Shown piece by piece: positions 29,458 through 45,824 of a stretch of 64,000 nt of DNA. The notes beneath the pieces were generated by a model that made no database searches, had not been told where the DNA came from, and worked only from the letters and a program-made list of their open reading frames with translations. Source of the stretch: Vicinamibacterales bacterium (GTDB taxonomy: Bacteria > Acidobacteriota > Vicinamibacteria > Vicinamibacterales > UBA8438); contig OZ241896.1 of the NCBI GenBank assembly GCA_965203565.1, forward strand, positions 681,707 through 745,706, read 5' to 3'. The translations under genes were made by a program, and so were the position numbers. The first letter of the stretch is position 1. Every line of letters starts with the position of its first letter.

Positions 29458-31581
29458 TCACGAATCGGGCGCTTCGAACACCCACAGGGTGGCGCCGCGG
29501 TCGGACGGGTTCCGGATCTCCGGCGCCATGATCGAGTAGGCGCCGGTCAGGTATCCGCCGCCGCCGGTGATGGCGGCGACGTACTGCCGGCCGTTCGCTG
29601 CGAAGGTGATCGGCGGCGCGTTCGGAACGTCGTCCAGCCGGGTGGCCCACAGGCGCTCTCCGGTCGCGGCGTCGTACGCGCTCAGCCGCCGGTCGAGCGC
29701 GCCGGCGAACAGCAGACCTCCGGCGGTGACCAGGGCGCCGGTCGTCTGCGGGGCGCGCTGCCGGGCTATCCAGACCGTCTCCTGCGTCTCCAGGTTGACC
29801 GCCTCCACCCGCCCGTAGTTGCCGTCGCTCTCGGGCCGGGGCCGCACCGTCCAGCGGACGCCGGTCGACAGGCTGCCGCGCTCGTCCTCGGCCACCGGCA
29901 CGAGGTCCATGCACGCCTCCACGATCGGGACGTACACGATCTTCGTCTCCGGGTCGTAGGCGGTCGGCGACCAGCTCCGGCCGCCGCCGACGTGCGGGCA
30001 GACCATCTTCGTCTCGCCGTCGCCGGGGATCAGCCGCGGGTCGACGAACTTCTCGCCGGTCACCGGGTCGATCCCGGTGATCCCGTTCTGGAGCCCGAGG
30101 TCGATGGACGAGACGTACCGGCCGGAGCCGGTCTCGACGATGTCGAAGATCGCCTGCTTGCCGGCGGTCACCACCACGCTGGTCGGGACGCCGCCGACCG
30201 GCAGCTCGACGATCTGCCGCTCGAACGCCCAGTCGAGGTCCCACTGGCCGTTCGCCTGGTGCTGGAAGTGCCAGGCCAGCTCGCCCGTGTCCGGACGGAT
30301 GGCGAGCGTGGTGTCGAGATAGAGCGCGTCGTTCGTGATCCCGTCCCGTCCCACCGGGTCGCGGAGCGGGCCGGTGTCGTACGTGTTGCCCGGTCCGAAG
30401 AACGCGAGGTTGCTCGCCGGGTCGTAGCTGCCGGGAATCCAGACCGAGCCGCCGTTGCGGTCCTCGTCGGCGAGTCCGTTCCAACTGTTCCCGCCGGGGG
30501 CGTCCGGGGGCGGGATGGTGCGGAACCGCCAGCGCTCGTCGCCGGTCTCGAGGTCGAGCCCCACGACGTAGTTGCCGCCCGCGGCGCGGCCGGTCGTCCC
30601 GACCATCACCGTGCCGCCGGCCGCCAGGGCGCCGCCGGTCATCCGCATCCGGCTCTCGGGGTCGGCGACCTGCCGCTCCCACTCGACGTCGCCGGTCCGG
30701 ACGTCGAGGGCGACCACGTGCAGGTCGGAGGTCGGCACGTACAGCCGTTCGCCGTAGATCGCCATGCCCCGCTTGAGGCTCGGCGCGACGTCCCGCGGCA
30801 GGCGGCGCGCGTACTCCCAGAGCAGGTCGCCGGCGGCGGCGTCGAGCGCCTGGACCCTGTCGCCGTAGCCGTGCACGAACAGGACGCCGTCGTGCACGAT
30901 CGGCGTCGACTCGTTCGGGCCGGGCGGCAGCGCCCACGACCAGGCGACGCGCAGGCGGCCGACGTTCGACCGGTCGATCCGGTCGAGCGGGCTGTAGCCG
31001 GACGCGTCGTAGGTGCGCCGCCACAGCAGCCAGTCGCCGTCGCCGGGGCGTTTCAGCATCGCGTCGGTCACCGGGCGGATGGCGTCGAGCGGATTCCGCC
31101 GCGCCGGGACCGGCGGCAGGACGACGCCGGCCGAGAGTCCGCCGCCCTGCGACGTCCAGCCGGGCGACAGCATCGCCAGGGCCGCCGGGTCCGACGGCAG
31201 CTCGGCCGGGCCGGCCTCGACGCCGTTCTCCTGAAGCATGAACGCCGTCAGCGCGACGTACGTCTCGTCGCCGAGCGCGCCCGGCCGGTCCTGCGGCATC
31301 GTCGCCGCGGTTTCGGCAAGCAGCGCTTCGACCGGCCGCACGCGCCACTTTTCCCGAAAGGCGATTCCCCGGAGCGGCGGCGCGAACGGGCCGTCGTCGA
31401 GGTTGTCGCCGTGGCACGAGGCGCAGTGCCGCCGGTAGGCGGCCAGCCCGGCGTCGGCCTGCTCGGCGGTGTAAGTCGCCGGCCCCCGCTCCGGCTGCTG
31501 CTGCGCCGGCGCCGGCAGGGGACTGATCCAGACGAGCAGCGCGATAGGAACGGCCGGGATCGTTCGACGGCTCGGTGTCAT
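29458..31581 (-). CDS. PQQ-dependent dehydrogenase with N-terminal cytochrome c domain (second paralogue)
   Basis: Signal MTPSRRTIPAVPIALLVWISPLPAPAQ, CASCH heme motif, PVTDAMLKRPGDGDWLLWRRTYDASGYSPLDRIDRSNVGRLRVAWSW. Its ATG overlaps the stop of GT-C copy 1 as ATGA. Confidence 0.85.
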   Translation of the reverse strand: MTPSRRTIPAVPIALLVWISPLPAPAQQQPERGPATYTAEQADAGLAAYRRHCASCHGDNLDDGPFAPPLRGIAFREKWRVRPVEALLAETAATMPQDRPGALGDETYVALTAFMLQENGVEAGPAELPSDPAALAMLSPGWTSQGGGLSAGVVLPPVPARRNPLDAIRPVTDAMLKRPGDGDWLLWRRTYDASGYSPLDRIDRSNVGRLRVAWSWALPPGPNESTPIVHDGVLFVHGYGDRVQALDAAAGDLLWEYARRLPRDVAPSLKRGMAIYGERLYVPTSDLHVVALDVRTGDVEWERQVADPESRMRMTGGALAAGGTVMVGTTGRAAGGNYVVGLDLETGDERWRFRTIPPPDAPGGNSWNGLADEDRNGGSVWIPGSYDPASNLAFFGPGNTYDTGPLRDPVGRDGITNDALYLDTTLAIRPDTGELAWHFQHQANGQWDLDWAFERQIVELPVGGVPTSVVVTAGKQAIFDIVETGSGRYVSSIDLGLQNGITGIDPVTGEKFVDPRLIPGDGETKMVCPHVGGGRSWSPTAYDPETKIVYVPIVEACMDLVPVAEDERGSLSTGVRWTVRPRPESDGNYGRVEAVNLETQETVWIARQRAPQTTGALVTAGGLLFAGALDRRLSAYDAATGERLWATRLDDVPNAPPITFAANGRQYVAAITGGGGYLTGAYSIMAPEIRNPSDRGATLWVFEAPDS

Positions 31582-33602
31582 GGACGCCTCGCTTCGGCGC
31601 CGATTGCAGGCGCATTGTCGATCCGGATCGTCTCCTCCCACAGAGCGGTCCAGACGTCGCCGTTCTTCTCGGTCTGTCCGGTCCTGACGTGATCGACGGC
31701 GTACTCCGGCAGCCGAACGGCGGCGAGGCACTTCCCGTCGAACAGCGCCTGGGCGGGCAGGTTGAAATCCCGGTTGTCGAAACCGTCTCGAACGTGGTCG
31801 GCGGGCAGGTCGCCCGCGTCCACCGGAACGACGTGCAGGAAGAACCGTGCGCGCGAATCGGCCCGAACGCACGGCGCCCTGGCGTACGTCAGGGCGCCGC
31901 GGGCGGCGTCGAAGCGCACGTCGTAGTACGCTCGAGCCGCCGCCGCGCCCTGCGTCAACGACCGGTACGTCTCGCGGGAGCGATCCAGGTGGAGATCCAC
32001 GCGGGAGTCGTCCAGGAGCGCCGGGTCGAGGCCGTGCAAACTGGCGATCGTGTTGCCGTACACCTTCCTGATCCAGACTCTCGGAGCATGCGTTTCGGGC
32101 GGATTGATCTCCCTCTCGTGGCCGAAGACGAAATCGGAGCGGCCGCGGCACGCTTGCCGATCGGGGTCGGTGAATCTGAACCTGAGCCTCTTTCTTTGCG
32201 CTTCGGAGAGCAGGTGATGATTATTGTGCGATCCTCCCCCCAGGCACAAGCTGGTCGATGGGTGGATTCGCGCCAGATGATGCAGCCCGCCGAGGCGCGC
32301 CGTCTGCCAGTAATCCATCTCGTACTGCGTCCGGAGACGCTCCGGCGTCGTCCTGTCGACGAGGAAATTGAAGTAGACGTTCTGAAGCGGATGGATGCGG
32401 GCCATGACGATCAGGATGCCCGCCGCCGCAACGCCCGCCGCCGCATACGCCCCCCGGCGCGCCCGGGCGGCGTCGCGCGGCGCCAGCAGGCGCAGCCCGG
32501 ACGCCGCCAGCAGCGCGAGCGGCGCGTGCAGGAAATACAGGTGCCGCCACCCGTTGAAGGCGTGCGCGCCCAGCGCCGCCGCGGCGAACGGCGGCGCCGT
32601 CAGACAGGCGGTCAGCAGAAGTTCGAACCGCAGCGGCGTGTTGCGCAGCGCCCGGCCGGGACGCGCGGCGACGCGCCACGCAGCGCCGACGATCCCGACG
32701 CCGCCCAGCAGCAGCGTGAACGGCGGCGTCGTGACCGCCATCCACGTCGGAACGTAACGCCACGGCAGATCGCCCGCGCGAACCAGTCGTCCCTGGAAAA
32801 GTTCCCAGCGATTGGGCGGATGTTCGGAGAGCACCCGGAGCGGCTCGGCGAACTCACGCGGGTCGCTCCACAGGTACGGACTGATCGCGTACAGCGTCGC
32901 GGCCCACGCCGCCCCGAACGCCGCGGTCGTCTTCAGAACGCGCCGCCGGCCGCTCCACTGCGCCGCGCAGAGCAGGTCGCACGCCCGCATGCCCAGCACG
33001 GCGGCGAAGAGCATCACGCCCATGATGCGCAGGTTCGTCAGCACCGCCGTTCCCATCCCCAGGATCACGAACACGCGGACCGTGTTCTTCTCGAACGCCC
33101 GGTGGACCAGATACAGCGCGATCATGAACATCGACAGGAAGGGAACGTCCTTGCTGTTGAAGAACGCGTGGGCGTACAGGCGGGGATGGAGCAGGAACAG
33201 CAGCATGGCAAGGAGAGCGAGCGGCCCGTCGCCGAACAGCCGGCGGGCGAGCAGGAAGCAGGCGAAGCCGCCGCACAGCCAGAACAGGTGGGTGGCGCAG
33301 TAACGCAGCAGATACGCCGTGCGGCGGCTGTCGTCGAGGCCGAGCGCCCGCTCGGCGAGGAGCAGCGGCAGCTCGAACGCCACGCCGTAATACTGGTCGT
33401 AGGCCCTGAGACGATGGCCGCCGCCGACGGACAGTGCGCCGTCGTCGCCCAAGGCGTACTCCAGGTTCGCCGCGGCGATTGACCGCTGTTGTTGCGTGTC
33501 CTCCGAGATGCCGTAGTCGCCCACGACGGCGGCGCCCGCGGCGGCGAAGAGGACGAGGATCGCGACGGCCCAGGTCCGACAGGAAATGCGGGAAATCGTC
33601 AT
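31578..33602 (-). CDS. polytopic GT-C (ArnT/PMT-like) membrane protein with soluble C-terminal domain, array copy 1
   Basis: MTISRISCRTWAVAILVLFAAAG..., YYGVAFELPLLLAER, LFLLHPRLYAHAFFNSKDVPFL, and C-terminal FFLHVVPVDAGDLP...RLPEYAVDHVRTGQ. ATGA overlaps at both ends. Confidence 0.6.
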   Translation of the reverse strand: MTISRISCRTWAVAILVLFAAAGAAVVGDYGISEDTQQQRSIAAANLEYALGDDGALSVGGGHRLRAYDQYYGVAFELPLLLAERALGLDDSRRTAYLLRYCATHLFWLCGGFACFLLARRLFGDGPLALLAMLLFLLHPRLYAHAFFNSKDVPFLSMFMIALYLVHRAFEKNTVRVFVILGMGTAVLTNLRIMGVMLFAAVLGMRACDLLCAAQWSGRRRVLKTTAAFGAAWAATLYAISPYLWSDPREFAEPLRVLSEHPPNRWELFQGRLVRAGDLPWRYVPTWMAVTTPPFTLLLGGVGIVGAAWRVAARPGRALRNTPLRFELLLTACLTAPPFAAAALGAHAFNGWRHLYFLHAPLALLAASGLRLLAPRDAARARRGAYAAAGVAAAGILIVMARIHPLQNVYFNFLVDRTTPERLRTQYEMDYWQTARLGGLHHLARIHPSTSLCLGGGSHNNHHLLSEAQRKRLRFRFTDPDRQACRGRSDFVFGHEREINPPETHAPRVWIRKVYGNTIASLHGLDPALLDDSRVDLHLDRSRETYRSLTQGAAAARAYYDVRFDAARGALTYARAPCVRADSRARFFLHVVPVDAGDLPADHVRDGFDNRDFNLPAQALFDGKCLAAVRLPEYAVDHVRTGQTEKNGDVWTALWEETIRIDNAPAIGAEARRP

Positions 33603-35575
33603 GGCCGCAACGGACGCATCCGGATCGTCTCCTCCCACAGGGCGGTCCAGACGCCGTCCTTTCTCTCGGTCTGTCCGGTCCTGACGTGATCGACGGCGTA
33701 CTCCGGCAACCGAACGGTGATGAGGCACTTCCCGTCGAACAGCGCCTGATCGGGCAGGTTGAAGTCCAGGTTGTCGTACCCGTCTCGAACGCGGTCGCCG
33801 GGGAGGTCGTCCGCGTCCACGGGAACGACGTGCAGAAAGAAACGCGCGGCCATGTCGGTCCGGACGCACGGCGCCCTGGCGTACGTCAGGGCGCCGCGGG
33901 CGGCGTCGAGGTATACGTCGTAGCGCATGCGAGCAGCCGGCGCGCCCTGCGTCAACGACCGGTGCGTCTCGCGGAAGCGATCCAGGTGGAGACCTACGCG
34001 GGAGTCGTCCAGGAGCGTCGGGTTGAGGCCGTACATCCTGACAATCGTGTTGCCGTACACCTTTCTGACCCGGACTTCCGGGACATGCGCCTCCAGCTTG
34101 CGCGCATGCCGCGGAGGAGCGCCGACGACGAAGTCGGCGTGACGGCCGCGGCACGCTCGTCCGGAGCGGATTCTCTTTTTCTGCATTTCGGAAAGAAGCC
34201 CCTGATTACGCCTTCCTCCGGTCACGCACAAATTGGTCGACGGGTAGGTCTGCGCCAGATGACGCAGCGCGCCGAGGCTCGTCGTATCCCAGTAATTCAT
34301 GTCGTACTGCGTCCGAAGACGCTCCGGCGTCGTCCTGTCGACGAGGAAATTGAAGTAGACGTTCTGATACGGATGAATGCGGGCCATGGCGATCAGGATG
34401 CCCGCCGCCGCGACGCCCGCCGCCGCATACGTCCCTCGGCGCGCCCAGGCGGGGTCGCCCGCCGCCAGCAGGCGCAGCCCGGACGCCGCCAGCAGGCAGA
34501 GCGGCGCGTACAGGAAATACAGGTGCCGCCACCCGTGGTAGACGTGCGCGCCCAGCGCCGCCACGGCGAGCGGCGGCGCCGCCAGACAGGCGGCCGTCAG
34601 GCATTCCAGCCGCAGCGTCGTGTTGCGCAGCGCCAGACCGGGACGCGCGGCGCCGCGCCACGCAACGCCGACGACTCCGACGCCGGCCAGCAGCAGCGTG
34701 AACGGCGGCGTCGTGATGGCGACCCACGTCGGAACGTAGCGCCACGGCAGATCGTCCGAATGAATCATCCTGCCCTGAAAGAGTGGCCGGAGAATGGACG
34801 GATGTTCGGAGAGGACCCGGAGCGCCTCGGCGAACTCACGCGGATCGCTCCACAGGTACGGACTGATCGCGTACAGCGTCGCCGCGCCCGCCGCAACGAA
34901 CGCCGCGGTCGTCTTCAGAATGCGCCTGCGCCCGCTCCACTGCGCAGCATGAAGCAGGTCCAGCGCCCGCATGCCCAGCACGGCGGCGACGAGCATCACG
35001 CCCATGATGCGGAGGTTCGTCAGCACCGCCGTTCCCGCCCCCAGGATCACGAACGCGCGGACCGTGTCCTTCTCGAACGCCCGGTGGACCAGGTGCAGCG
35101 CGATCATGAACATCGACAGGAAGGTGACGTCCTTGCTGTTGAAGAACGCGTGGGCGTACAGGCGGGGATGGAGCAGGAACAGCAGCATCGCCAGGAGAGC
35201 GAGCGGCCCGCTTCCGAACAGCCGGCGGGCGAGCAGGAAGCAGGCGAAGCCGCCGCACAGCCAGAACAGGTGGGTGGCGCCGTGGCGGAACAGATGCGCC
35301 GTGCGGCTGTCGTCGAGGCCGAGCGTCCGCTCGGCGAGCAGCAGCGGCAGCTCGAACGCCATGCCGTAGTACCGGTCGTGGGCCCGGGGAAGATTGTGGG
35401 CGGACAGTGCGTCGTCGCGGCCCAGGATGTACTCCAGGTTCGCCGCGGCGATTCGCCGCTGGCGGTCCGCGTCCACCGAGACGCCGTAGTCGCCCACGAC
35501 GGCGGCGCCCGCGGCGGCGAAGAGGACGAGGATCGCGACGGCCCAGGTCCGGCAGGAGATGCGGGAAATCGTCAT
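33599..35575 (-). CDS. GT-C-like membrane protein, array copy 2
   Basis: Paralogue of copy 1 with the same conserved blocks. ATGA overlaps with copies 1 and 3. Confidence 0.6.
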   Translation of the reverse strand: MTISRISCRTWAVAILVLFAAAGAAVVGDYGVSVDADRQRRIAAANLEYILGRDDALSAHNLPRAHDRYYGMAFELPLLLAERTLGLDDSRTAHLFRHGATHLFWLCGGFACFLLARRLFGSGPLALLAMLLFLLHPRLYAHAFFNSKDVTFLSMFMIALHLVHRAFEKDTVRAFVILGAGTAVLTNLRIMGVMLVAAVLGMRALDLLHAAQWSGRRRILKTTAAFVAAGAATLYAISPYLWSDPREFAEALRVLSEHPSILRPLFQGRMIHSDDLPWRYVPTWVAITTPPFTLLLAGVGVVGVAWRGAARPGLALRNTTLRLECLTAACLAAPPLAVAALGAHVYHGWRHLYFLYAPLCLLAASGLRLLAAGDPAWARRGTYAAAGVAAAGILIAMARIHPYQNVYFNFLVDRTTPERLRTQYDMNYWDTTSLGALRHLAQTYPSTNLCVTGGRRNQGLLSEMQKKRIRSGRACRGRHADFVVGAPPRHARKLEAHVPEVRVRKVYGNTIVRMYGLNPTLLDDSRVGLHLDRFRETHRSLTQGAPAARMRYDVYLDAARGALTYARAPCVRTDMAARFFLHVVPVDADDLPGDRVRDGYDNLDFNLPDQALFDGKCLITVRLPEYAVDHVRTGQTERKDGVWTALWEETIRMRPLRP

Positions 35576-37602
35576 GGCCGCAACGGACGCATCCGGATCG
35601 TCTCCTCCCACAGAGCGGTCCAGACGCCGTCCTTTCTCTCGGTCTGTCCGGTCCTGACGTGATCGACGGCGTACTCCGGCAACCGAACGGTGATGAGGCA
35701 CTTCCCGTCGAACAGCGCCTGATCGGGCAGGTTGAAGTCCAGGTTGTCGTACCCGTCTCGAACGTGGTCACCGGGGAGGTCGTCCGCGTCCACGGGAACG
35801 ACGTGCAGAAAGAAACGCGCGGCCATGTCGGTCCGGACGCACGGCGCCCTGGCGTACGTCAGGGCGCCGCGGGCGGCGTCGAGGTATACGTCGTAGCGCA
35901 TGCGAGCAGCCGGCGCGCCCTGCGTCAACGACCGGTGCGTCTCGCGGAAGCGATCCAGGTGGAGACCCGCGCGGGAGTCGCCCAGGAGCGTCGGGTTGAG
36001 GCCGTACATCCTGACGATCGTGTTGCCGTACACCTTTCTGACCCGGACTTCCGGGACATACGCCTCCAGCTTGCGCGCATGCCGCGAATGAGCGACGACG
36101 ACGAAGTCGGCGTGACAGCCGTGCGCTCGTCCGGAGCGGATTCTCTTTTTCTGCATTTCGGAAAGAAGCCGCCGATTACGCCTTCCTCCGGTCACGCACA
36201 AGTTGGTCGACGGCCAGGTCTGCGCCAGATGACGCAGCGCGCCGAGGCTCGCCGTCTCCCAGTAATTCATGTCGTACTGCGTCCGGAGACGCTCCGGCGT
36301 CGTCCTGTCGACGAGGAAATTGAAGTAGACGTTCTGAAGCGGATGAATGCGGGCCATGGCGATCAGGATGCCCGCCGCCGCGACGCCCGCCGCCGCATAC
36401 GTCCCTCGGCGCGCCCAGGCGGCGTCGCCCGCCGCCAGCAGGCGCAGCCCGGACGCCGCCAGCAGGGAGAACGGCGCGTGCAGGAAATACAGGTGCCGCC
36501 ACTCGTCGTAGGTGTGCGCGCCCAGCGCCGCCACGGCGAGCGGCGGCGCCGTCAGACAGGCGGTCAGCAGAAGTCCGAACCGCAGCGGCGTGTTGCGAAG
36601 CGCCCGGCCGGGACGCGCGGCGGCGCGCCACGCAACGCCGACGATCCCGACGCCGCCCAGCAGCAACGTGAACGGCGGCGTCGTGATGGCGACCCACGTC
36701 GGAACGTAGCGCCACGGCAGATCGTCCGAATGAATCATCCTGCCCTGAAAGAGTTGCCGGATATGAAGCGGATGTTCGGAGAGGACCCGGAGCGCCTCGG
36801 CGAACTCCCGCGGATCGCTCCACAGGTACGGACTGATCGCGTACAGCGTCGCGGCGCCCGCCGCCGCGAATGCGCCGGCCGTCTTCAGAACGCGCCGGCG
36901 TTCGCTCCGCTCCGCGGCATGGAGCAGGTCCAACGCCCGCATGCCCAGCACGGCGGCGAAGAGCATCACGCCCATGATGCGCAGGTTCGTCAGCACCGCC
37001 GCCGCCGCTCCCAGGACCACGAACGCGCGGACCGTGTCCTTCTCGAACGCCCGGTGGGCCAGGTGCAGCGCGATCATGAACATCGCCAGGAAGGGGACGT
37101 CCTTGCTGTTGAAGAACGCGTGGGCGTACAGGCGGGGGTGGAGCAGGAACAGCAGCATCGCCAGGAGAGCGAGCGGTCCGCTGTCGAACAGCCGGCGGGC
37201 GAGCAGGAAACAGGCGAAGCCGCCGCACAGCCAGAACAGGTGGGTGGCGCCGTGGCGGAACAGATGCGCCGTGCGGCTGTCGTCGAGGCCGAGCGTCCGC
37301 TCGGCGAGCAGCAGCGGCAGCTCGAACGCCATGCCGTAGTACCGGTCGTGGGCCCAGGGAAAAAGATTGTGGGCGGACAGTGCGTCGTCGTCGCCCAGGG
37401 CGTACTCCAGGTTCGCCGCGGCGATTCGCCGCTGTGGGTCCGCGTCCTCCGAGATGCCGTAGTCGCCCACGACGGCGGCGCCCGCGGCGGCGAAGAGGAC
37501 CAGGATCGCGACGGCCCAGCAGCCCGTGGCAAAATCCCCGCTGCATTCGACGGGCGCTGCATCCCGGCTGAACTGCGTTGTTCGTCGGTCGAATATGGCC
37601 AA
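35572..37602 (-). CDS. GT-C-like membrane protein, array copy 3, N-terminus supplied by the MITE (TTG start)
   Basis: Starts MAIFDRRTTQFSRDAAPVECSGDFATGC (element-encoded), then WAVAILVLFAAAG (normal residue 12 onward). AGGAGG lies 7 nt upstream of the TTG. Confidence 0.5.
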   Translation of the reverse strand: MAIFDRRTTQFSRDAAPVECSGDFATGCWAVAILVLFAAAGAAVVGDYGISEDADPQRRIAAANLEYALGDDDALSAHNLFPWAHDRYYGMAFELPLLLAERTLGLDDSRTAHLFRHGATHLFWLCGGFACFLLARRLFDSGPLALLAMLLFLLHPRLYAHAFFNSKDVPFLAMFMIALHLAHRAFEKDTVRAFVVLGAAAAVLTNLRIMGVMLFAAVLGMRALDLLHAAERSERRRVLKTAGAFAAAGAATLYAISPYLWSDPREFAEALRVLSEHPLHIRQLFQGRMIHSDDLPWRYVPTWVAITTPPFTLLLGGVGIVGVAWRAAARPGRALRNTPLRFGLLLTACLTAPPLAVAALGAHTYDEWRHLYFLHAPFSLLAASGLRLLAAGDAAWARRGTYAAAGVAAAGILIAMARIHPLQNVYFNFLVDRTTPERLRTQYDMNYWETASLGALRHLAQTWPSTNLCVTGGRRNRRLLSEMQKKRIRSGRAHGCHADFVVVAHSRHARKLEAYVPEVRVRKVYGNTIVRMYGLNPTLLGDSRAGLHLDRFRETHRSLTQGAPAARMRYDVYLDAARGALTYARAPCVRTDMAARFFLHVVPVDADDLPGDHVRDGYDNLDFNLPDQALFDGKCLITVRLPEYAVDHVRTGQTERKDGVWTALWEETIRMRPLRP

Positions 37603-37677: not shown

Positions 37678-37710
37678 CCAAGTCCGGCAGGACATGCGGG
37701 AAATCGTCAT
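37615..37710 (-). other. orphaned original start of copy 3: 31-codon ORF (MTISRMSCRTW + 20 element-encoded codons)
   Basis: ATG 37710 overlaps the copy-4 stop as ATGA. Its stop TGA sits inside the element's GTGAGGAGGG, 12 nt upstream of TTG 37602. Confidence 0.5.
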
Positions 37711-39737
37711 GGCCGCAACGGACGCATCCGGATCGTCTCCTCCCACAGAGCGGTCCAGACGCCGCCCTTTCTCTCGGTCTGTCCGGTCCTGACGTGGTCG
37801 ACGGCGTACTCCGGCAACCGCATCGTCACGAGGCACTTCCCGTCGAACAGCGCCTGATCGGGCAGGTCGAAATCCAGGTGGTCGAAACCGTAACGCACCT
37901 GGTCGCCGGGCAGGTCGTCCGCGTCCACCGGAACGACGTGCAGGAAGAAACGCGCGGCCATGTCGGTCCGGACGCACGGCGCCTTGGCGTACGTGAGGGC
38001 GCCGCGGGCGGCGTCGAGGTATACGTCGTAGCGCATGCGAGCAGCCGGCGCGCCCTGCGTCAACGACCGGTACGTCTCGCGGAAGCGATCCAGGTGGAGA
38101 TCCGCGCGGGAGTCGCCCAGGAGCGCCGGGTTGACGCCGTACACGCTGGAGATCGTGTTGCCGTACACCTTTCTGACCCGGACTTCCGGAACATGCGCCT
38201 CCGGCTTGCGCGCATGCAGCGGATGAGCGACGACGACGAAGTCGGCGTGACGGCCGCGGCACGCTCGTACGGAGCGGATTCTCTTTTTCTGCATTTCGGA
38301 AAGAAGCCGCCGATTACGCCTTCCTCCGGTCACGCACAAGTTGGTCGACGGGTAGGTCTGCGCCAGATGACGCAGCGCGCCGAAGCCCGTCGTATCCCAG
38401 TAGCTCATGTCGTACTGCGTCCGAAGACGCTCCGGCGTCGTCCTGTCGACGAGGAAATTGAAGTAGGCGTTCTGAAGCGGATGAATGCGGGCCATGGCGA
38501 TCAGGATGCCCGCCGCCGCGACGCCCGCCGCCGCATACGTCCCTCGGCGCATCCAGGCGGGGTCGCGCGCCGCCAGCAGGCGCAGCCCGGACGCCGCCAG
38601 CAGGCAGAGCGGCGCATGCAGGAAATACAGGTGCCGCCACCCGTGGTAGACGTGCGCGCCCAGCGCCGCCACGGCGAGCGGCGGCGCCGCCAGACAGGCG
38701 GCCGTCAGGCATTCCAGCCGCAGCGTCGTGTTGCGCAGCGCCAGACCGGGACGCGCGGCGACGCGCCACGCAACGCCGACGACTCCGACGCCGGCCAGCA
38801 GCAGCGTGAACGGCGGCGTCGTGATGGCGACCCACGTCGGAACGTAGCGCCACGGCAGATAGTCCGGACGAATCATCCTGCCCTGAAAGAGTTGCCGAAG
38901 AGTAGTCGGATGTTCGGAGAGGTCCCGGAGCGCTCCGGCGAACTCGCGCGGGTCGCTCCACAGGTACGGACTGATCGCGTACAGCGTCGCGGCGCCTGTC
39001 GCAGCGAACGCGCCGGCCGTCGCCAGAACGCGCCGGCGTTCGCTCCGCTGCGCCGCGCAGAGCAGGTCGCACGCCCGCATGCCCAGCACGGCGGCGAAGA
39101 ACATCACGCCCATGATGCGGAGGTTCGTCAGCACCGCCGCCGCCCCCCCCAGGATCACGAACGCGCGGACCGTGTCCTTCTCGAACGCCCGGTGGACCAG
39201 GTGCAGCGCGATCATGAACATCGACAGGAAGGTAACGTCCTTGCTGTTGAAGAACGCGTGGGCGTACAGGCGGGGATGGAGCAGGAACAGCAGCATCGCC
39301 AGGAGAGCGAGGGGCCCGCTGTCGAACAGCCGGCGGGCGAGCAGGAAGCAGGCGAAGCCGCCGCACAGCCAGAACAGGTGGGTGGCGCCGTGGCGGAACA
39401 GATGCGCCGTGCGGCTGTCGTCGAGGCCGAGCGTCCGCTCGGCGAGCAGCAGCGGCAGCTCGAACGCCATGCCGTAGTACCGGTCGTGGGCCCGGGGAAG
39501 ATTGTGGGCGGACAGTGCGTCGTCGCGGCCCAGGACGTACTCCAGGTTCGCCGCGGCGATTCGCCGCTGTGGGTCCGCGTCCACCGAGACGCCGTAGTCG
39601 CCCACGACGGCGGCGCCCGCGGCGGCGAAGAGGACGAGAATCGCGACGGCCCAGCAGCCCGTGGCAAAATCCCCGCTGCATTCGACGGGCGCTGCATCCC
39701 GGCTGAACTGCGTTGTTCGTCGGTCGAATATGGCCAA
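37707..39737 (-). CDS. GT-C-like membrane protein, array copy 4, N-terminus supplied by the MITE (TTG start)
   Basis: Same architecture as copy 3. Confidence 0.5.
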   Translation of the reverse strand: MAIFDRRTTQFSRDAAPVECSGDFATGCWAVAILVLFAAAGAAVVGDYGVSVDADPQRRIAAANLEYVLGRDDALSAHNLPRAHDRYYGMAFELPLLLAERTLGLDDSRTAHLFRHGATHLFWLCGGFACFLLARRLFDSGPLALLAMLLFLLHPRLYAHAFFNSKDVTFLSMFMIALHLVHRAFEKDTVRAFVILGGAAAVLTNLRIMGVMFFAAVLGMRACDLLCAAQRSERRRVLATAGAFAATGAATLYAISPYLWSDPREFAGALRDLSEHPTTLRQLFQGRMIRPDYLPWRYVPTWVAITTPPFTLLLAGVGVVGVAWRVAARPGLALRNTTLRLECLTAACLAAPPLAVAALGAHVYHGWRHLYFLHAPLCLLAASGLRLLAARDPAWMRRGTYAAAGVAAAGILIAMARIHPLQNAYFNFLVDRTTPERLRTQYDMSYWDTTGFGALRHLAQTYPSTNLCVTGGRRNRRLLSEMQKKRIRSVRACRGRHADFVVVAHPLHARKPEAHVPEVRVRKVYGNTISSVYGVNPALLGDSRADLHLDRFRETYRSLTQGAPAARMRYDVYLDAARGALTYAKAPCVRTDMAARFFLHVVPVDADDLPGDQVRYGFDHLDFDLPDQALFDGKCLVTMRLPEYAVDHVRTGQTERKGGVWTALWEETIRMRPLRP

Positions 39738-39812
39738 TATGCTCCCTCCTCACGCCTTGTCAGCCGGGCGCCCCGCCCGTCTCGGTGCGACGCGGGGTTT
39801 CACCACGGGCTG
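39655..39812 (-). mobile_element. 158-bp MITE-like element, B-subfamily, inserted after codon 11 of GT-C copy 4 (TSD CCAG)
   Basis: Flanks ggcCCAG|CAGCCCGTGG...CCACGGGCTG|CCAGgtcc. Confidence 0.8.
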
Positions 39813-39845
39813 CCAGGTCCGACAGGACATGCGGGAAATCGTCAT
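39750..39845 (-). other. orphaned original start of copy 4: 31-codon ORF reading into the MITE
   Basis: Identical arrangement to 37615-37710. ATG 39845 overlaps the copy-5 stop. Confidence 0.5.
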
Positions 39846-41791
39846 GGCCGCAACGGACGCATCCGGATCGTCTCCTCCCACAGAGCGGTCCAGACGCCGT
39901 CCTTCCTCTCGGTCTGTCCGGTCCTGACGTGGTCGACGGCGTACTCCGGCAACCGAACGGTGATGAGGCACTTCCCGTCGAACAGCGCGTGATCGGGCAG
40001 GTTGAAGTCCAGGTTGTCGTACCCGTCTCGACCGCGGTCGCCGGGGAGGTCGTCCGCGTCCACGGGAACGACGTGCAGGAAGAAACGTGCGGCCAAGTCG
40101 GCCGTAGCGCACGGCGCCCTGGCGTACGTGAGGGCGCCGCGGGCGGCGTCGAGGTATACGTCGTAGCGCATGCGAACCGCTGGCGCGCCCTGCGTCAACG
40201 ACCGGTGCGTCTCGCGGAAACGGTCCACGTGAAAATCGTCCAGCAGCGCCAGGTTGAGACCGTACAAACTGGCGATCGTGTTGCCGTACGCCTTTCTGGT
40301 CCAGACGGCCGGAGCATGCGTTTCGGACGAACCCCTCCGGGCGGTGGCGCCTGCGAAGACGAAATCGGAGCGGCCGCGGCGTCTGAATCTGATCCTCTTT
40401 CTCTGCGCTTCGGAGAGAAGGTGATGGTCACGCGCTCTCCCCGTCACGCACAAACGGGTCGACGGCCAGGTTCGCGCCAGGTGATGCAGCCCGCCGAAGC
40501 GCGTCATCTCCCAGAGATTCATCTCGTACTGCGTCCGGAGATGCTCCGGCGTCGTCCTGTCGACGAGGAAATTGAAGTAGACGTTCTGAAGCGGATGGAT
40601 GCGCGCCATGGCGATCAGGATGCCCGCCGCCGCGACGCCCGCCGCCGCATACGCTCCTCGGCGCGCCCAGGCCGCGTCGCGCGCCGCCAGCAGGCGCAGC
40701 CCGGACGCCGCCAGCAGCGCGAGCGGCGCATGCAGGAAATACAGGTGCCGCCACCCGTCGTAGGTGTGCGCGCCCAGCGCCACGGCGAGCGGCGGCGCCG
40801 TCAGACAGGCGGCCGCCAGGCATTCGAGCCGCAGCGGCGTGTTGCGAAGCGCCCGGCCGGGACGTGCGGCCGCGCGCCACGCAACGCCGACGACCCCGAC
40901 GCCGCCCAGCAGCAGCGTGAACGGCGGCGTCGTGACCGCCATCCACGTCGGAACGTAGCGCCACGGCAGATCGTCCGAATGAATCATCCTGCCCTGAAAG
41001 ACTTGCCAGGAATGATGCGGATGTTCGGAGAGGACCCGGAGCGCCTCGGCGAACTCACGCGGGTCGCTCCACAGGTACGGACTGATCGCGTACAGCGTCG
41101 CAGCGCATGCCGCCCCGAACGCCGCTGTCGTCTTCAGAACGCGCCGGCGCTCGCTCCACTGCGCAGCGCAGAGCAGGTCGCACGCCCGCATGCCCAGCAC
41201 GGCGGCGAAGAGCATCAGGCCCATGATGCGGAGGTTCGTCAGCACCGCCGCTCCCGCCCCCAGGACCGCGAACGCGCGAACCGTGTCCTTCTCGAACGCC
41301 CGGTGGACCAGGCACAGCGCGATCATGAACATCGCCAGGAAGGGGACGTCCATGCCGTTGAAGAACGCGTGCGCGTACAGGCGGGGGTGGAGCAGGAACA
41401 GCAGCATCGCGGCGAGCGCCGGCGGACCGCTGTCGAACAGCCGGCGGGCGAGCAGGAAGCAGGCGAAGCCGCCGCACAGCCAGAACAGGTGGGTGGCGCA
41501 GTGACGCAGCAGATACGCCGTGCGGCTGTCGTCGAGGCCGAGCGCCCGCTCGGCGAGCAGCAGCGGCGCCTCGAACGCCACGCCGTAGTACCGGTGGTGG
41601 TCCGGCAGGCCGCGAAACGACAACGCGTCGTCGTCGCCCAGGACGTATTCCAGGTTCGCCGCAGCGGTTTTCCGATGTCTTGCCGTGTCCGGCGAAGCGC
41701 CGTAGTCACCCACGACAACGCCGCCCGCGGCGGCGAAGAGGACGAGGATCGCGACGGCCCACGTCCGGCAGGAGATGCGGGAAATCGTCAT
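39842..41791 (-). CDS. GT-C-like membrane protein, array copy 5
   Basis: MTISRISCRTWAVAILVLFAAAGGVVVGDYG... Conserved blocks present. ATGA overlap with copy 6. Confidence 0.6.
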   Translation of the reverse strand: MTISRISCRTWAVAILVLFAAAGGVVVGDYGASPDTARHRKTAAANLEYVLGDDDALSFRGLPDHHRYYGVAFEAPLLLAERALGLDDSRTAYLLRHCATHLFWLCGGFACFLLARRLFDSGPPALAAMLLFLLHPRLYAHAFFNGMDVPFLAMFMIALCLVHRAFEKDTVRAFAVLGAGAAVLTNLRIMGLMLFAAVLGMRACDLLCAAQWSERRRVLKTTAAFGAACAATLYAISPYLWSDPREFAEALRVLSEHPHHSWQVFQGRMIHSDDLPWRYVPTWMAVTTPPFTLLLGGVGVVGVAWRAAARPGRALRNTPLRLECLAAACLTAPPLAVALGAHTYDGWRHLYFLHAPLALLAASGLRLLAARDAAWARRGAYAAAGVAAAGILIAMARIHPLQNVYFNFLVDRTTPEHLRTQYEMNLWEMTRFGGLHHLARTWPSTRLCVTGRARDHHLLSEAQRKRIRFRRRGRSDFVFAGATARRGSSETHAPAVWTRKAYGNTIASLYGLNLALLDDFHVDRFRETHRSLTQGAPAVRMRYDVYLDAARGALTYARAPCATADLAARFFLHVVPVDADDLPGDRGRDGYDNLDFNLPDHALFDGKCLITVRLPEYAVDHVRTGQTERKDGVWTALWEETIRMRPLRP

Positions 41792-43791
41792 GGCCGCAAG
41801 GGACTTATCCGGATCGTCTCCTCCCACAGAGCGGTCCAGACGTCGCCCTTCTTCTCGGTCTGTCCGGTCCTGACGTGATCGACGGCGTACTCCGGCAATC
41901 GGACGGCGACGAGGCATTTCCCGTCGAACCGCGCCTGCCGGGGCAGGTTGAAGTCCAGGTTGTCGAAACCGTGCCGAACCTGGTCGTCGGGCAGGTCGCC
42001 CGCGTCCACCGGAACGACGTGCAGGAAGAAACGCGCGCGCGAATCGGCCCAAACGCACGGCGCCCTGGCGTACGTCAGGGCGCCGCGGGCGGCGTCGAAG
42101 TACACGTCGTAGCGCGCGCGCGCCGACGGCGCGCCCTGCGTCAACGACCGGTACTTTTCGCGGGAGCGGTCCACGTGAAAATCGTCGAGCAGCGCCGGGT
42201 TGAGGCCGTACAACGTTGTAGAGATCGTGTTGCCGTACGCCTTCCTGGCCCAGACGACCGGAGCATGCGTCTCGGGCGGATCGTTCCCGGTGATTGTTGA
42301 CCAAGGCTCGGCGCCGAAGACGAAATCCACGCGGCCGCGGCACGCTTGCCGCTGGAAATCGGTCAATCTGGCCATGATTCTGTTTCTTTGCGCTTCGGGA
42401 AGCAGCAGTCGATGCCTCGGCTGGGTTCTGGTCATGCACAAATGGGGCGCTGGGTATTTCTGCGTCAGGTGGCGCAGCCCGCCGAGGTACGTAATCTCCA
42501 GGTAGTACATTTGGTACTGCGTTCGAAGACGCTCCGGCGTCGTCCTGTCGACGAGGAAATTGAAGTAGACGTGCTGAAGCGGATGAATGCGGGCCATGGC
42601 GATCAGAATGCCCGCCGCCGCGACGCCCGCCGCCGCATACGCCCCCCGGCGCACCCGGGCGGCGTCGCGCGCCGCCGGCAGGCGCAGCCCGGACGCCGCC
42701 AGCAGCGCGAGCGGCGCGTGCAGGAAATACAGGTGCCGCCACCCGTCGTAGGTGTGCGCGCCCAGCGCCGCCACGGCGAGCGGCGGCGCCGTCAGACAGA
42801 CGGCCGTCAGGCATTCCAGCCGCAGCGGCGTGTTGCGAAGCGCCTGTTCAGGACGCGCGGCCGCGCGCCACGCAACGCCGACGACCCCGACGCAACCCAG
42901 CAGCAGCGTGAACGGCGGCGTCGTGATCGCCATCCACGTCGGAACGTAACGCCACGGCAGATCGTCCGGCCAAACCGTTCGTCCCTGAAAGAGTTGCGGG
43001 ACATGGTTCGGGTGTTCGGAGAAGACCCGGAGCGCCTCGGCGAACTCACGCGGGTCGCTCCACAGGTACGGACTGACCGCGTACAGCGTCGCGGCCCACG
43101 CCGCCGCGAACGCCCCGGTCGTCTTCAGAACGCGCCTGCGCCCGCTCCGCTGCGCGGCATGGAGCAGGTCCAGCGCCCGCATGCCCAGCACGGCGGCGAC
43201 GAGCATCAGACCCATGACGCGGAGGTTCGTCAGCACCGCCGCCGCCGCTCCCAGGACCAAGAACGCGCGGACCGTGTCCTTCTCGAACGCCCGGTGGATC
43301 AGATACAGCGCGATCATGAACATCGACAGGAAGGGAACGTCCTTGCTGTTGAAGAACGCATGGGCGTACAGGCGGGGATGGAGCAGGAACAGCAGCATCG
43401 CCAGGAGAGCGATCGGCCCGCTGTCGAACAGCCGGCGGGCGAGCAGGAAGCAGGCGAAGCCGCCGCACAGCCAGAACAGGTGGGTGGCGCCGTGGCGCAG
43501 CAGGTACGCCGTGCGGCTGTCGTCGCGGCCGAGCGCCCGCTCGGCGAGGAGCAGCGGCAGCTCGAACGCCACGCCGTAATACCGGTCGGAAGCGAAGAGA
43601 TGATAGTCGCCGCCGACGGACAGTGCGTCGTCGTCGCCCAGGACGTACGCCAGGTTCGCCGCGGCGATCAGCTGCTGCTTGGGCTCGTCCACCGTGACGC
43701 CGTAGTCGTCCACGACGGCGGCGCCCGCGGCGGCGAAGAGGACGAGGATCGCGACGGCCCACGTCCAGCAGGAAATGCGGGAAATCGTCAT
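41788..43791 (-). CDS. GT-C-like membrane protein, array copy 6
   Basis: MTISRISCWTWAVAILV... Longer linker before the C-terminal domain. ATGA overlap with copy 7. Confidence 0.6.
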   Translation of the reverse strand: MTISRISCWTWAVAILVLFAAAGAAVVDDYGVTVDEPKQQLIAAANLAYVLGDDDALSVGGDYHLFASDRYYGVAFELPLLLAERALGRDDSRTAYLLRHGATHLFWLCGGFACFLLARRLFDSGPIALLAMLLFLLHPRLYAHAFFNSKDVPFLSMFMIALYLIHRAFEKDTVRAFLVLGAAAAVLTNLRVMGLMLVAAVLGMRALDLLHAAQRSGRRRVLKTTGAFAAAWAATLYAVSPYLWSDPREFAEALRVFSEHPNHVPQLFQGRTVWPDDLPWRYVPTWMAITTPPFTLLLGCVGVVGVAWRAAARPEQALRNTPLRLECLTAVCLTAPPLAVAALGAHTYDGWRHLYFLHAPLALLAASGLRLPAARDAARVRRGAYAAAGVAAAGILIAMARIHPLQHVYFNFLVDRTTPERLRTQYQMYYLEITYLGGLRHLTQKYPAPHLCMTRTQPRHRLLLPEAQRNRIMARLTDFQRQACRGRVDFVFGAEPWSTITGNDPPETHAPVVWARKAYGNTISTTLYGLNPALLDDFHVDRSREKYRSLTQGAPSARARYDVYFDAARGALTYARAPCVWADSRARFFLHVVPVDAGDLPDDQVRHGFDNLDFNLPRQARFDGKCLVAVRLPEYAVDHVRTGQTEKKGDVWTALWEETIRISPLRP

Positions 43792-45815
43792 GGCCGTATC
43801 CGGATCGTCTCCTCCCACAGGGCGGTCCAGACGTCGTCCTTCCTCTCGGTCTGCCCGGTCCTGACGTGATCGACGGCGTACTCCGGCAACCGGACGGCGA
43901 CGAGGCACTTCCCATCGAACTGCGCCTGAACGGGCAGGTTGAAGTCCCGGTTGTCGAAACCGTGCCGAACCTGGTCGTCGGGCAGGTCGCCCGCGTCCAC
44001 CGGAACGACGTGCAGGAAGAAACGCGCGCGCGAATCGGCCCGAACGCACGGCGCCCTGGCGTACGTCAGGGCGCCGCGGGCGGCGTCGAAGTACACGTCG
44101 TAGCGCGCGCGCGCCGACGGCGCGCCCTGCGTCAACGACCGGTACTTTTCGCGGGAGCGGTCCACGTGAAAATCGTCGAGCAGCGCCGAGTTGAGGCCGT
44201 ACAACGTTGTGGAGATCGTGTTGCCGTACGCCTTCCTGGCCCAGACGGCCGGAGCATGCGTCTCGGGCGGATCTTTCTCGGTGATTGTTGACCAAGAATG
44301 GGCGTCGAAAGCGAAATCCAAGCGGCCGCGGCACGCTTGCCGGTAGAAAGCGGTGGATCTGAGCTTGATTCTGTTTCTCTGCGCTTCGGGAAGCAGCAGT
44401 CGATGGCGCGACTGGGTTCTGGTCATGCACAAATGGGGCGGCGGGTAAGTCTGCGTCAGGTGACGCAGCCCGCCGAGGTTCGCCGTCTCCCAGTAGTCCA
44501 TCTCGTACTGCGTCCGGAGATGCTCCGGCGTCGTCCTGTCGATGAGGAAGTTGAAGTAGACGTTCTGATGCGGATGAATGCGCGCCATGGCGATCAGGAT
44601 GCCCGCCGCCGCGACGCCCGCCGCCGCATACGCCCCCCGGCGCACCCGGGTCGCGTCGCGCGCCGCCGGCAGGCGCAGCCCGGACGCCGCCAGCAGCGCG
44701 AGCGGCGCGTGCAGGAAATACAGGTGCCGCCACCCGTCGTAGGTGTTCGCGCCCAGCGCCGCCACGGCGAGCGGCGGCGCCGTCAGGCACGCGGTCAGCA
44801 GAAGTTCGAACCGCAGCGGCGTGTTGCGAAACGCTTGGCCGGGCCGCGCGGCCGCGCGCCACGCAGCGCCGACGACCCCGACGCCGCCCAGCAGCAGCGT
44901 GAACGGCGGCGTCGTGATGGCGACCCACGTCGGAACGTAGCGCCACGGCAGATCGTCCGGATGAACCAGTCGTCCCTGGAAAAGTTGGTATCTGCCATGC
45001 GGATGTTCGGAGAGCCCCCGGAGCGCTTCGGCGAACTCCCGCGGGTCGCTCCACAGGTACGGACTGACCGCGTACAGCGTCGCGGCCCACGCCGCCGCGA
45101 ACGCCGCGGCCGTCTTCAGAACGCGCCTGCGCCCGCTCCGCTGCGCAGCATGGAGCAGGTCCAGCGCCCGCATGCCCAGCACGGCGGCGACGAGCATCAG
45201 ACCCATGACGCGGAGGTTCGTCAGCACCGCCGCCGCCGCTCCCAGGACCAAGAACGCGCGGACCGTGTCCTTCTCGAACGCCCGGTGGACCAGGTGCAGC
45301 GCGATCATGAACGTCGCCAGGAAGGGAACGTCCTTGCTGTTGAAGAACGCGTGGGCGTACAGGCGGGGGTGGAGCAGGAACAGCAGCATCGCCAGGAGAG
45401 CGAGCGGTCCGCTGCCGAACAGCCGGCGGGCGAGCAGGAAGCAGGCGAAGCCGCCGCACAGCCAGAACAGGTGGGTGGCGCCGTGGCGGAACAGATGCGC
45501 CGTGCGGCTGTCGTCGAGGCCGAGCGTCCGCTCGGCGAGCAGCAGCGGCGCCTCGAACGCCACGCCGTAGTACCGATTGTGGGCCTCGGTGAGATTGCGG
45601 GCGGACAGTGCGTCGTCGTCGCCCAGGGCGTACTCCAGGTTCGCCGCGGCGATGCGCCGCTGTGGGTTCGCGTCCTCCGAGACGCCGTAGTCGCCCACGA
45701 CGGCGGCGCCCGCGGCGGCGAAGAGGACGAGGATCGCGACGGCCCAGGTCCGGCAGGAAACGCGGGATCGTCCGCCCTCGATCCGGGTTGAACTCGATCC
45801 GGGTTGAACCGCCAT
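43788..45815 (-). CDS. GT-C-like membrane protein, array copy 7 (first gene of the array, remodelled N-terminus)
   Basis: MAVQPGSSSTRIEGGRSRVSCRTWAVAILV... The canonical ATGACGATT is mutated to GGACGATCC. The new upstream ATG is in frame only because of a 16-nt tandem duplication. Confidence 0.55.
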   Translation of the reverse strand: MAVQPGSSSTRIEGGRSRVSCRTWAVAILVLFAAAGAAVVGDYGVSEDANPQRRIAAANLEYALGDDDALSARNLTEAHNRYYGVAFEAPLLLAERTLGLDDSRTAHLFRHGATHLFWLCGGFACFLLARRLFGSGPLALLAMLLFLLHPRLYAHAFFNSKDVPFLATFMIALHLVHRAFEKDTVRAFLVLGAAAAVLTNLRVMGLMLVAAVLGMRALDLLHAAQRSGRRRVLKTAAAFAAAWAATLYAVSPYLWSDPREFAEALRGLSEHPHGRYQLFQGRLVHPDDLPWRYVPTWVAITTPPFTLLLGGVGVVGAAWRAAARPGQAFRNTPLRFELLLTACLTAPPLAVAALGANTYDGWRHLYFLHAPLALLAASGLRLPAARDATRVRRGAYAAAGVAAAGILIAMARIHPHQNVYFNFLIDRTTPEHLRTQYEMDYWETANLGGLRHLTQTYPPPHLCMTRTQSRHRLLLPEAQRNRIKLRSTAFYRQACRGRLDFAFDAHSWSTITEKDPPETHAPAVWARKAYGNTISTTLYGLNSALLDDFHVDRSREKYRSLTQGAPSARARYDVYFDAARGALTYARAPCVRADSRARFFLHVVPVDAGDLPDDQVRHGFDNRDFNLPVQAQFDGKCLVAVRLPEYAVDHVRTGQTERKDDVWTALWEETIRIRP
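45777..45808. repeat. perfect 2 x 16-nt tandem duplication (CTCGATCCGGGTTGAA) within codons 3-13 of copy 7
   Basis: Read directly. 16 is not a multiple of 3. With one unit, ATG 45815 would be out of frame. Confidence 0.9.
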
Positions 45816-45824
45816 CGTTCGCCC

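Follow-up and report, generated by a model that had tools for sequence, protein, structure and literature searches.

GT-C glycosyltransferases decorate lipid A, cell-wall polymers and secreted proteins, and are usually encoded by a single gene or by a few old paralogues with fixed roles. Among them, the mycobacterial Emb arabinosyltransferases diverged anciently, hold distinct and fixed roles and carry carbohydrate-binding C-terminal modules, and we know of neither mosaic gene conversion nor strain-level change of copy number in these Emb proteins. Surface variation by gene conversion is found in other families, including pilE/pilS of Neisseria, vls of Borrelia and msp2 of Anaplasma. Here, we analyse a 64,000-nt stretch of DNA from a Vicinamibacterales bacterium (GenBank assembly GCA_965203565.1, contig OZ241896.1, positions 681,707 to 745,706; hereafter the window, in whose numbering coordinates are given), which contains an array of seven GT-C-like genes followed by a gene for a cytochrome-c/pyrroloquinoline quinone (PQQ) dehydrogenase. 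The copies are mosaics that evolve by gene conversion and unequal crossing-over, with a homogenised membrane core. The most unusual features of the array are this pervasive gene conversion, its hypervariability between strains and the concentration of hypervariable patches in predicted periplasmic regions. We consider it moderately probable that the array constitutes a recombining repertoire of polyprenyl-phosphate-sugar transferases with differing acceptor specificities; taken alone, the proposal that the copies differ in specificity is tentative, and we lean slightly away from it.

The GT-C array and its mosaic evolution

The seven genes lie head to tail on the minus strand and are named A to G along the direction of transcription:

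43788-45815, minus strand: A, a GT-C paralogue of 675 aa that heads the array; intact open reading frame (ORF); PMT_2 profile match of 37.4 bits against a cut-off of 26.1
41788-43791, minus strand: B, a GT-C paralogue of 667 aa; ORF intact and joined to A by a true ATGA overlap (43788-43791)
39842-41791, minus strand: C, a GT-C paralogue of 649 aa; ORF intact and joined to B by a true ATGA overlap (41788-41791); PMT_2 match of 33.4 bits
37707-39737, minus strand: GT-C paralogue D, 676 aa; intact ORF from a TTG inside a miniature inverted-repeat transposable element (MITE), with GGAGG 7 nt upstream
35572-37602, minus strand: GT-C paralogue E, 676 aa; TTG start inside a MITE
33599-35575, minus strand: F, a GT-C paralogue of 658 aa, used for modelling; joined to E by a true ATGA overlap; PMT_2 match of 36.7 bits
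31578-33602, minus strand: G, a GT-C paralogue of 674 aa that ends the GT-C series; joined to F by a true ATGA overlap

Every ORF was found where the initial annotation had placed it, with a length divisible by three (649-676 aa), no internal stop and the high third-position G+C (GC3) codon pattern shared by all copies in a window of ~72% G+C. The copies share 76-91% amino acid and 85-94% nucleotide identity, with B 87% identical to A, and D 89-91% identical to E and F, at the amino acid level. The conserved sequence blocks that the initial annotation had listed are present, with the exceptions of LTNLRVMG in two copies, DVTFL in two and NGMDV in one. Copy A lacks the canonical ATGACG start used by the others, so its start is an upstream in-frame ATG; its 5' end also contains an exact 16-nt tandem duplication (45777-45809; CTCGATCCGGGTTGAA, 2.1 repeats). 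The G+C content of the array (32000-46000) is 68-69%, against 72-77% in both flanks, and its AT skew is positive; this low G+C may reflect membrane-protein composition or a different history.

Relatives of the family were drawn from ENA and JGI metagenomes. One of these, ENA ERZ25068358 (the sister assembly, loci L005-L012), is 98.5-99.2% identical to the window in the flanks of the array and, its large contigs being assumed to represent one genome, carries at least 22 full-length copies across five arrays:

L005: five GT-C copies and a fragment, then the same dehydrogenase gene
L007: two full and two truncated GT-C copies, after an SSF transporter gene
L010: two GT-C copies, within a GT4/GT2 cluster
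L011, 4022-21974: at least ten GT-C copies, after an HtrA-like protease gene, in an array that continues past the end of the retrieved locus
L012, 7437-14010: three GT-C copies, starting 34 nt after rplQ at the end of a ribosomal-protein/rpoA operon

The junctions within these arrays are mostly 4-nt overlaps or 2-nt gaps. L005 is syntenic with the window array. The seven-fold array, which had been thought to be without parallel, is therefore matched by a sister array of at least ten copies and accompanied by at least nine further paralogues in its own genome. Indeed, nine further paralogue clusters lie on the 3.95-Mb contig that contains the window, and the genome holds at least 16 GT-C copies, representing ~0.8% of that contig, or about 1% of a genome whose size, to judge from the contig, is roughly 4 Mb. 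The more distant relatives occur at low copy number; one single copy with 70% identity has sulfotransferase, rhamnosyltransferase-like and GT2 genes as its neighbours, a second sample contains a two-copy array in a GT4/GT2/epimerase cluster, a relative with 61% identity follows an SSF gene, from which it is separated by a 515-aa gene of unknown function, and 45-49%-identical relatives are single or paired. The literature that we searched describes neither such arrays nor the samples that contain them.

Several lines of evidence demonstrate that gene conversion among the copies is pervasive. In sliding windows, the nearest relative of each copy switches every 100-150 nt; often this relative occupies a different position or belongs to a different array, with 97-100% identity. 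The four-gamete test fails for 47% of informative site pairs, and the pairwise homoplasy index (z = -12.7, with none of 2000 permutations as low) indicates that neighbouring sites are far more compatible than shuffled ones. Strain-level comparison reveals how rapidly the array diverges relative to its surroundings. Between the window and L005, the dehydrogenase gene has a synonymous divergence (dS) of 0.020 and a nonsynonymous divergence (dN) of 0.007, and the divergent neighbour on the other side of the array a dS of 0.053 and a dN of 0.003, compared with a dS of 0.07-0.17 and a dN of 0.06-0.09 for positional GT-C counterparts. Even the best counterparts share just 84-89% amino acid identity (G and its positional counterpart, copy 6 of L005, share 89%), and copy number at the locus changes from seven in the window to five plus a fragment in L005. 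All 28 full-length copies examined in the two genomes lack an internal stop.

Fold, active site and hypervariable patches

The proposal that these proteins are GT-C-like polytopic proteins with a soluble C-terminal domain (CTD) is supported by profile and structural evidence that agree with one another. PF13231 (PMT_2) matched the four copies tested at 33.4-37.4 bits, above its gathering cut-off and over profile positions 32-159 of 160, and precomputed PF13231 annotation is attached to nearly all homologues. Copy F was modelled with AlphaFold2 from an alignment of 64 sequences, and the model is confident (mean predicted local distance difference test score (pLDDT) 88.6, predicted template-modelling score 0.87) and contains 11 transmembrane (TM) helices and a periplasmic domain at residues 401-658. 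The 26 best Foldseek matches to this model in the PDB are all GT-C proteins, with a best probability of 1.0, and are headed by STT3 (2.5e-5) and ArnT (5f15, 7e-5), followed by ALG9, EmbA/B/C, DPY19 and Pmt4; global TM-scores are just 0.3-0.5 because the CTDs differ. We therefore regard the GT-C identity of the copies as highly likely. It is the GT-C reading that is supported and not membership of GT39 or GT83 specifically: the likeness to ArnT (GT83) is structural, neither an NCBIfam model nor sequence similarity placing the copies in that family, and no MIR domain was found in them.

The topology model of F places the N-terminus inside and the C-terminus, with a CTD of ~260 aa, outside. Arg-rich loops lie on one side and the long loops 30-90 and 238-290 lie with the CTD on the other. 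The positive-inside rule and an invariant Cys570-Cys617 pair together predict that this latter side, with the long loops and the CTD, is periplasmic. The Cys pair of the CTD is compatible with an oxidising compartment, and the host is diderm, with a SurA gene in the window and a TolC-type OEP gene in locus L010 of the sister assembly. Directly after TM1, the proteins carry a D29-Y30-G31...D35 motif, in which Asp29 occupies the position that we take to be the site of the catalytic acid in GT-C enzymes. Among close relatives, Asp29 is conserved in 85 of 86 and Asp35 in 76 of the 86; among distant ones, Asp29 is conserved in 63 of 64. Tyr30, His102, Arg189, Arg350 and His401 are invariant in both alignments, Arg138, Lys148 and Asp149 nearly so, and all of these conserved residues of active-site type lie on the predicted periplasmic side.

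Modelled separately, the CTD gave a pLDDT of 89.3, and Foldseek with this domain alone returned only generic Ig/FN3/CBM56-like beta-sandwich matches at E ~0.01, for which reason no fold was assigned. The final ~110 aa (33602-33950, minus strand, in F) form a beta-sandwich repeat module with the invariant Cys pair and a TGQ motif. In a full HMMER search, 1,784 representative proteins matched this module at E <= 0.001; many of these homologues, such as P0143, carry two to ten copies of the module after a GT-C core, compared with one in the window subfamily. The module has no Pfam model and no significant structural match in the PDB.

Variation among the 86 family members is concentrated in seven patches (residues 33-40, 60-66, 259-264, 427-433, 451-460, 468-474 and 482-495 of F), each with 43-62 distinct variants compared with 9-14 in core motifs. 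All seven fall in predicted periplasmic loops or the first half of the CTD: two in the first periplasmic loop just past Asp29, one in the TM7-TM8 loop and four in the CTD. Beyond these seven, the extreme C-terminus is also variable, forming an eighth such stretch. In the patches, the proportion of synonymous differences (pS) is 0.34-0.37 and the ratio of nonsynonymous to synonymous differences (pN/pS) is ~1.0, compared with 0.10-0.12 and ~0.6, respectively, in the TM core. Synonymous divergence three-fold above that of the core indicates that the patches represent old lineages that conversion has not overwritten.

Junctions, a mobile element and neighbouring genes

The initial annotation had viewed the seven GT-C genes and the dehydrogenase gene as a single translationally coupled operon, joined by an ATGA overlap at every junction. 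The tetranucleotide is present at all seven junctions; however, it is a true stop/start overlap at only five, those at 43788, 41788, 35572, 33599 and 31578 (A/B, B/C, E/F, F/G and G/dehydrogenase). At the C/D and D/E junctions, the ATGs at 39842-45 and 37707-10 open just a 31-codon remnant, severed from its gene by an inserted element. The features concerned are:

39655-39812, minus strand: 158-bp MITE in the 5' end of D; perfect 10-bp terminal inverted repeats (TIRs) CAGCCCGTGG/CCACGGGCTG, 4-bp target duplication CTGG
37520-37677, minus strand: 158-bp MITE in the 5' end of E; same element and site as in D; target duplication TTGG/CTGG
45924-46081, minus strand: 158-bp MITE upstream of A, within the 5' end of the divergent gene; TIRs, target duplication CGCG
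39750-39845, minus strand: 31-codon remnant ORF, the original 5' end of D severed by the MITE; its start codon and the stop codon of C together make up the ATGA; translation MTISRMSCRTWQPVVKPRVAPRRAGRPADKA, then stop

Perfect TIRs and a separate 4-bp duplication at each of several dispersed copies identify the element as a MITE; it is short, and it has the TIRs, target-site duplications and dispersed copies that define this class. There are five copies in the window, including 11529-11686 (plus strand), upstream of an Rrf2 gene, and 55166-55323 (plus strand), and at least five in related loci (L005 1312-1471, 5648-5805 and ~18984-19145; L010 20887-21044; L012 17717-17874), with target duplications of CGCG, CTGG, TCAG, TCGA and CCAG (twice). 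Rfam and tRNA scans of the window gave no match, and the element is thus not a known RNA family. In all ten copies, representing nine independent insertions, the strand that carries CTGACA-N16-CATATT and GGAGGG points to the next downstream gene, and the oriented elements sit just 5' of the start of that gene or in its 5' end. This bias suggests either a mobile promoter/5'-untranslated-region cassette or a strongly oriented choice of target. Only three sigma-70-like sites, which are consensus matches only, occur in 29000-46500, and all are inside the three MITEs listed above. We do not claim promoter activity for the element, whose -10 hexamer shares bases with the TTG from which D and E start; promoter and TTG start would thus be mutually exclusive at these genes.

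In D and E, the MITE is inserted after codon 11. The genes restart at TTG 39737 and TTG 37602, 105 nt past the upstream stop, and the N-termini ahead of TM1 consist of 28 new residues in place of ten native ones. At the RNA level, the element is predicted to form a hairpin (-96.7 kcal/mol, z = -8.3) that would bury the ribosome-binding site GGAGG of D and E. With two junctions broken in this way, the coupling of eight genes is reduced to three blocks at best, as judged from sequence: A-B-C, D, and E-F-G-dehydrogenase. Within A-B-C and E-F-G-dehydrogenase, 4-nt overlaps that lack a nearby Shine-Dalgarno sequence imply termination-reinitiation, by which translation would be coupled, and D and E, uncoupled by the MITE, would initiate from the MITE-borne GGAGG-N7-TTG. 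No terminator-like site beyond chance expectation lies between the eight genes, and a tandem-repeat scan found no homopolymer or short-repeat tracts suggestive of phase variation. Single MITE-end remnants occur in the 5' ends of other GT-C copies, including P0055, a copy elsewhere in the same genome whose N-terminus reads CRTWQPVAVLVLF, L011 4098-4107 and L012 10030-10039; these indicate that the CTGG site at codons 10-11 has been repeatedly hit or converted, and partial excisions of the MITE appear to leave in-frame scars in these genes.

The element shares with known bacterial MITEs, such as Correia elements, ERIC and the Rickettsia palindromic elements, its small size (158 bp), perfect TIRs, target-site duplications, many dispersed copies and long RNA hairpin, as well as insertion in gene 5' ends and reading frames. 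It differs in having no Rfam kin, in its 4-bp duplication and in its orientation toward the downstream gene in ten of ten copies.

The genes that flank the array are:

29458-31581, minus strand: cytochrome-c and PQQ beta-propeller dehydrogenase, 707 aa; Pfam PQQ 2.6e-59, Cytochrome_CBB3 9e-9
45804-47081, plus strand: gene divergent from the array, encoding a secreted protein whose ~300-aa domain is uncharacterised; position conserved in L005, 98.5% nucleotide identity

The first of these is the cytochrome-c/PQQ dehydrogenase that had been annotated 3' of the last GT-C copy, with a signal peptide, an N-terminal cytochrome c domain (residues 41-115) and a PQQ propeller; it is 98.96% identical in nucleotide sequence to its L005 orthologue. 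Its best relative in the PDB is ADH-IIG (2e-82), and it scores 347 bits against a cut-off of 480 with NCBIfam TIGR03075, the methanol/ethanol family. The type II quinohaemoprotein alcohol dehydrogenases (ADH-IIB/IIG) likewise combine an eight-bladed PQQ propeller with a covalently linked c-type haem domain; however, the cytochrome c domain is C-terminal in the solved enzymes and N-terminal in this one. The window encodes three PQQ-propeller dehydrogenase paralogues (26020-28197, plus strand; 29458-31581, minus strand; 61896-63779, minus strand), of which two have the cytochrome c domain N-terminal rather than C-terminal. All those tested fall below NCBIfam cut-offs, including that of the 'acido-empty-quinoprotein' model.

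The product of the divergent gene has no Pfam match. Translation probably begins at ATG 45999 or 46008 within the MITE, which is open in the frame of this gene over 45999-46081 (plus strand) and from which the reading is MANMLPPHALSAGRPARLGAPRGFTTGC followed by a hydrophobic signal-peptide core. The MITE thus appears to supply the gene with a new ATG and a positively charged N-region (MANMLPPHALSAGRPARLGAPRGFTTGC) before an old signal-peptide core. In the sister assembly, the same MITE lies ~50 nt away in this gene, after the hydrophobic core. Paralogues of the ~300-aa secreted domain, 35-37% identical, are encoded at 45804-47081 (plus strand), 28222-29328 (plus strand) and in the C-terminal half of 57577-59442 (plus strand); the domain has no Pfam or NCBIfam match, its motifs include RTPWGDPDLQGIW and ACHEGNY, one paralogue is fused to a metallo-beta-lactamase domain and two adjoin cytochrome-c/PQQ dehydrogenase genes. 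Between the dehydrogenase gene and a convergent 351-aa gene, L005 has ~1.2 kb of extra sequence (18940-20250), containing a MITE, a GDSL lipase gene and a 118-aa ORF, compared with a 129-nt spacer in the window (29329-29457). The window also encodes giant secreted repeat proteins, namely an RTX protein with 22 nonapeptide-repeat matches (398-3802, minus strand), a 1,955-aa PKD/Calx-beta protein (4037-9904, plus strand) and a 2,652-aa FN3/He_PIG protein (47154-55112, plus strand). Synteny with the sister assembly is lost at the FN3/He_PIG gene, placing the array at the edge of a variable region. PADLOC found no match to a defence system in the GT-C genes and their neighbours.

Proposed function, alternatives and known counterparts

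We propose that each copy is an active transferase that would work at the periplasmic leaflet, taking a sugar from a polyprenyl-phosphate-sugar donor and passing it to an envelope acceptor, either a polysaccharide or lipopolysaccharide-type glycan or a secreted protein. Asp29 would serve as the catalytic base, and Arg138, Lys148, Arg189 and Arg350 would hold the lipid phosphate. GT-C enzymes bind their acceptors at loop 1, the long loop before TM8 and the CTD, and because the hypervariable patches are located in these places, they may tune acceptor choice; on this reasoning, the patches would set acceptor specificity and the arrays would form a strain-specific, recombining repertoire of envelope-decorating enzymes. 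The presence of low-copy relatives in glycan gene clusters counts in favour of this reading. A further possibility, which we consider rather unlikely, is that the arrays, with 16 to 25 complete GT-C genes, are a recombination-based generator of diversity in envelope glycosylation. Conversion and unequal crossing-over would then shuffle a conserved catalytic scaffold with hypervariable specificity patches, giving each strain its own mosaic set of transferases and hence its own surface glycan pattern, perhaps under pressure from phages or predators. If so, the arrays would represent an enzyme-level analogue of antigenic-variation cassettes; to our knowledge, no such case involving a glycosyltransferase is known.

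The main rival is dosage or redundancy, in which all copies catalyse the same reaction and a stabilised amplification undergoes neutral drift that gene conversion partly erases. We consider this unlikely, although it accommodates several observations. Catalytic residues are identical across copies, concerted evolution is evident, and a whole-gene dN/dS of 0.56-0.82, high even for the membrane core, together with the patch pN/pS of ~1.0, is as would be seen under weak constraint. Indeed, relaxed constraint would yield the same ratio in the patches, and since this ratio never exceeds 1, positive selection is not demonstrated. However, redundancy does not readily explain why variation clusters so strongly in periplasmic patches while the TM helices are kept, why the patches are older than the core, or why all 28 full-length copies remain open over ~2 kb each, and a divergence of 6-15% is unlike that of recent amplifications. 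In addition to the substitution ratios, other results weigh against the repertoire that we favour. PF02366 (PMT proper) scores below its cut-off (11.2-16.3 bits against 22.7), an NCBIfam search of the GT-C proteins returned no family at E <= 0.01, a profile search of PDB sequences found nothing relevant, and no polyprenyl-phosphate-sugar synthase gene lies in or beside the window array. That the patches cluster around Asp29 is an argument from topology and analogy, and the donor, acceptor and product of the copies are candidates only, proposed by analogy. Finally, the ATGA overlap of G and the dehydrogenase gene is kept in L005, as would suit a functional link between the two.

This overlap, with the common orientation of the eight genes and the lack of excess terminator-like sites between them, is the case for a translationally coupled, cooperating operon, in which, for example, the GT-Cs would glycosylate the dehydrogenase, or the dehydrogenase would oxidise a glycan that they build. 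We consider such an operon very unlikely. A MITE hairpin with in-frame stops interrupts two of its junctions, and four other arrays of the sister assembly have no PQQ gene after them but instead follow an SSF transporter gene, rplQ or an HtrA-like protease gene, or lie with GT4/GT2 genes. Since family arrays stand beside unrelated genes, the tie to PQQ that was initially suspected appears to be positional, and the dehydrogenase is not a regular partner. Moreover, PQQ-type dehydrogenases are multi-copy, with three in the window and a fourth adjoining the L005 array, so that adjacency could easily arise by chance. The junction is probably a positional accident of one array and not a pathway link, and the PQQ connection that gave the locus the appearance of a new pathway is probably incidental. 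That the array itself is an assembly artefact or a decaying set of pseudogenes is most improbable. Repeats with a 2-kb period are hard to assemble and the native start is lost in D and E; however, the 6-15% divergence, a longest exact run of 213 nt between any two copies and the same layout in an independent, syntenic assembly indicate that the array is not an artefact, and every copy is a complete ORF with the high-GC3 pattern and conserved active-site residues, contrary to what pseudogenes would show.

If the patches do set acceptor specificity, these arrays would offer a natural library for GT-C acceptor choice, a ready set of chimeras for engineering and a new bacterial route to surface diversification. 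The comparison with described systems delimits what is novel. ArnT of C. metallidurans (PDB 5f15), a solved example of the PMT_2-type, lipid-carrier-dependent transferases, shares with the copies the GT-C fold, a polytopic inner-membrane location and a periplasmic CTD; in both, the first periplasmic loop begins with a conserved acidic residue and basic residues line the periplasmic leaflet. It differs in that sequence identity is 14%, 13 TM helices are present compared with the 11 predicted here, and the array CTD has no significant structural match; in addition, ArnT is normally single-copy in an arn operon beside donor-synthesis genes, whereas here there are at least 16 copies and no such genes nearby. 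PMT/GT39, TMTC and TMEM260 proteins belong to the same clan, as reflected in weak PF02366 matches and a TM-score of 0.49 on Pmt4 as target, yet the array proteins fall below the PF02366 cut-off and have no MIR or TPR domain. The acidic motif of loop 1 is essential in PMTs (Lommel et al. 2011, cited in PMC7801869). Protein acceptors are possible for the array GT-Cs.

Like the window array, EmbC-EmbA-EmbB are tandem, co-oriented GT-C paralogues with periplasmic CTDs, and they are among the structural matches (E = 3e-3 to 1e-1); however, they are three proteins of ~1,050-1,100 aa, compared with arrays here of seven to at least ten recombining copies, those of the window being 76-91% identical. 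With pilE/pilS, vls and msp2, the array shares segmental mosaicism, a conserved framework with short hypervariable patches, and strain-specific repertoires. Those systems vary a structural antigen from one expression site and silent cassettes, whereas every copy here is a complete and apparently expressible enzyme gene and no asymmetry of expression site and donor was seen. Therefore, while the fold, the family and the existence of tandem GT-C paralogues (EmbCAB) are already known, what is new is the scale (16 to 25 copies, in arrays of seven to at least ten genes), the near-identity of copies with ongoing gene conversion and strain-level turnover, and an architecture of framework plus hypervariable patches in an enzyme.

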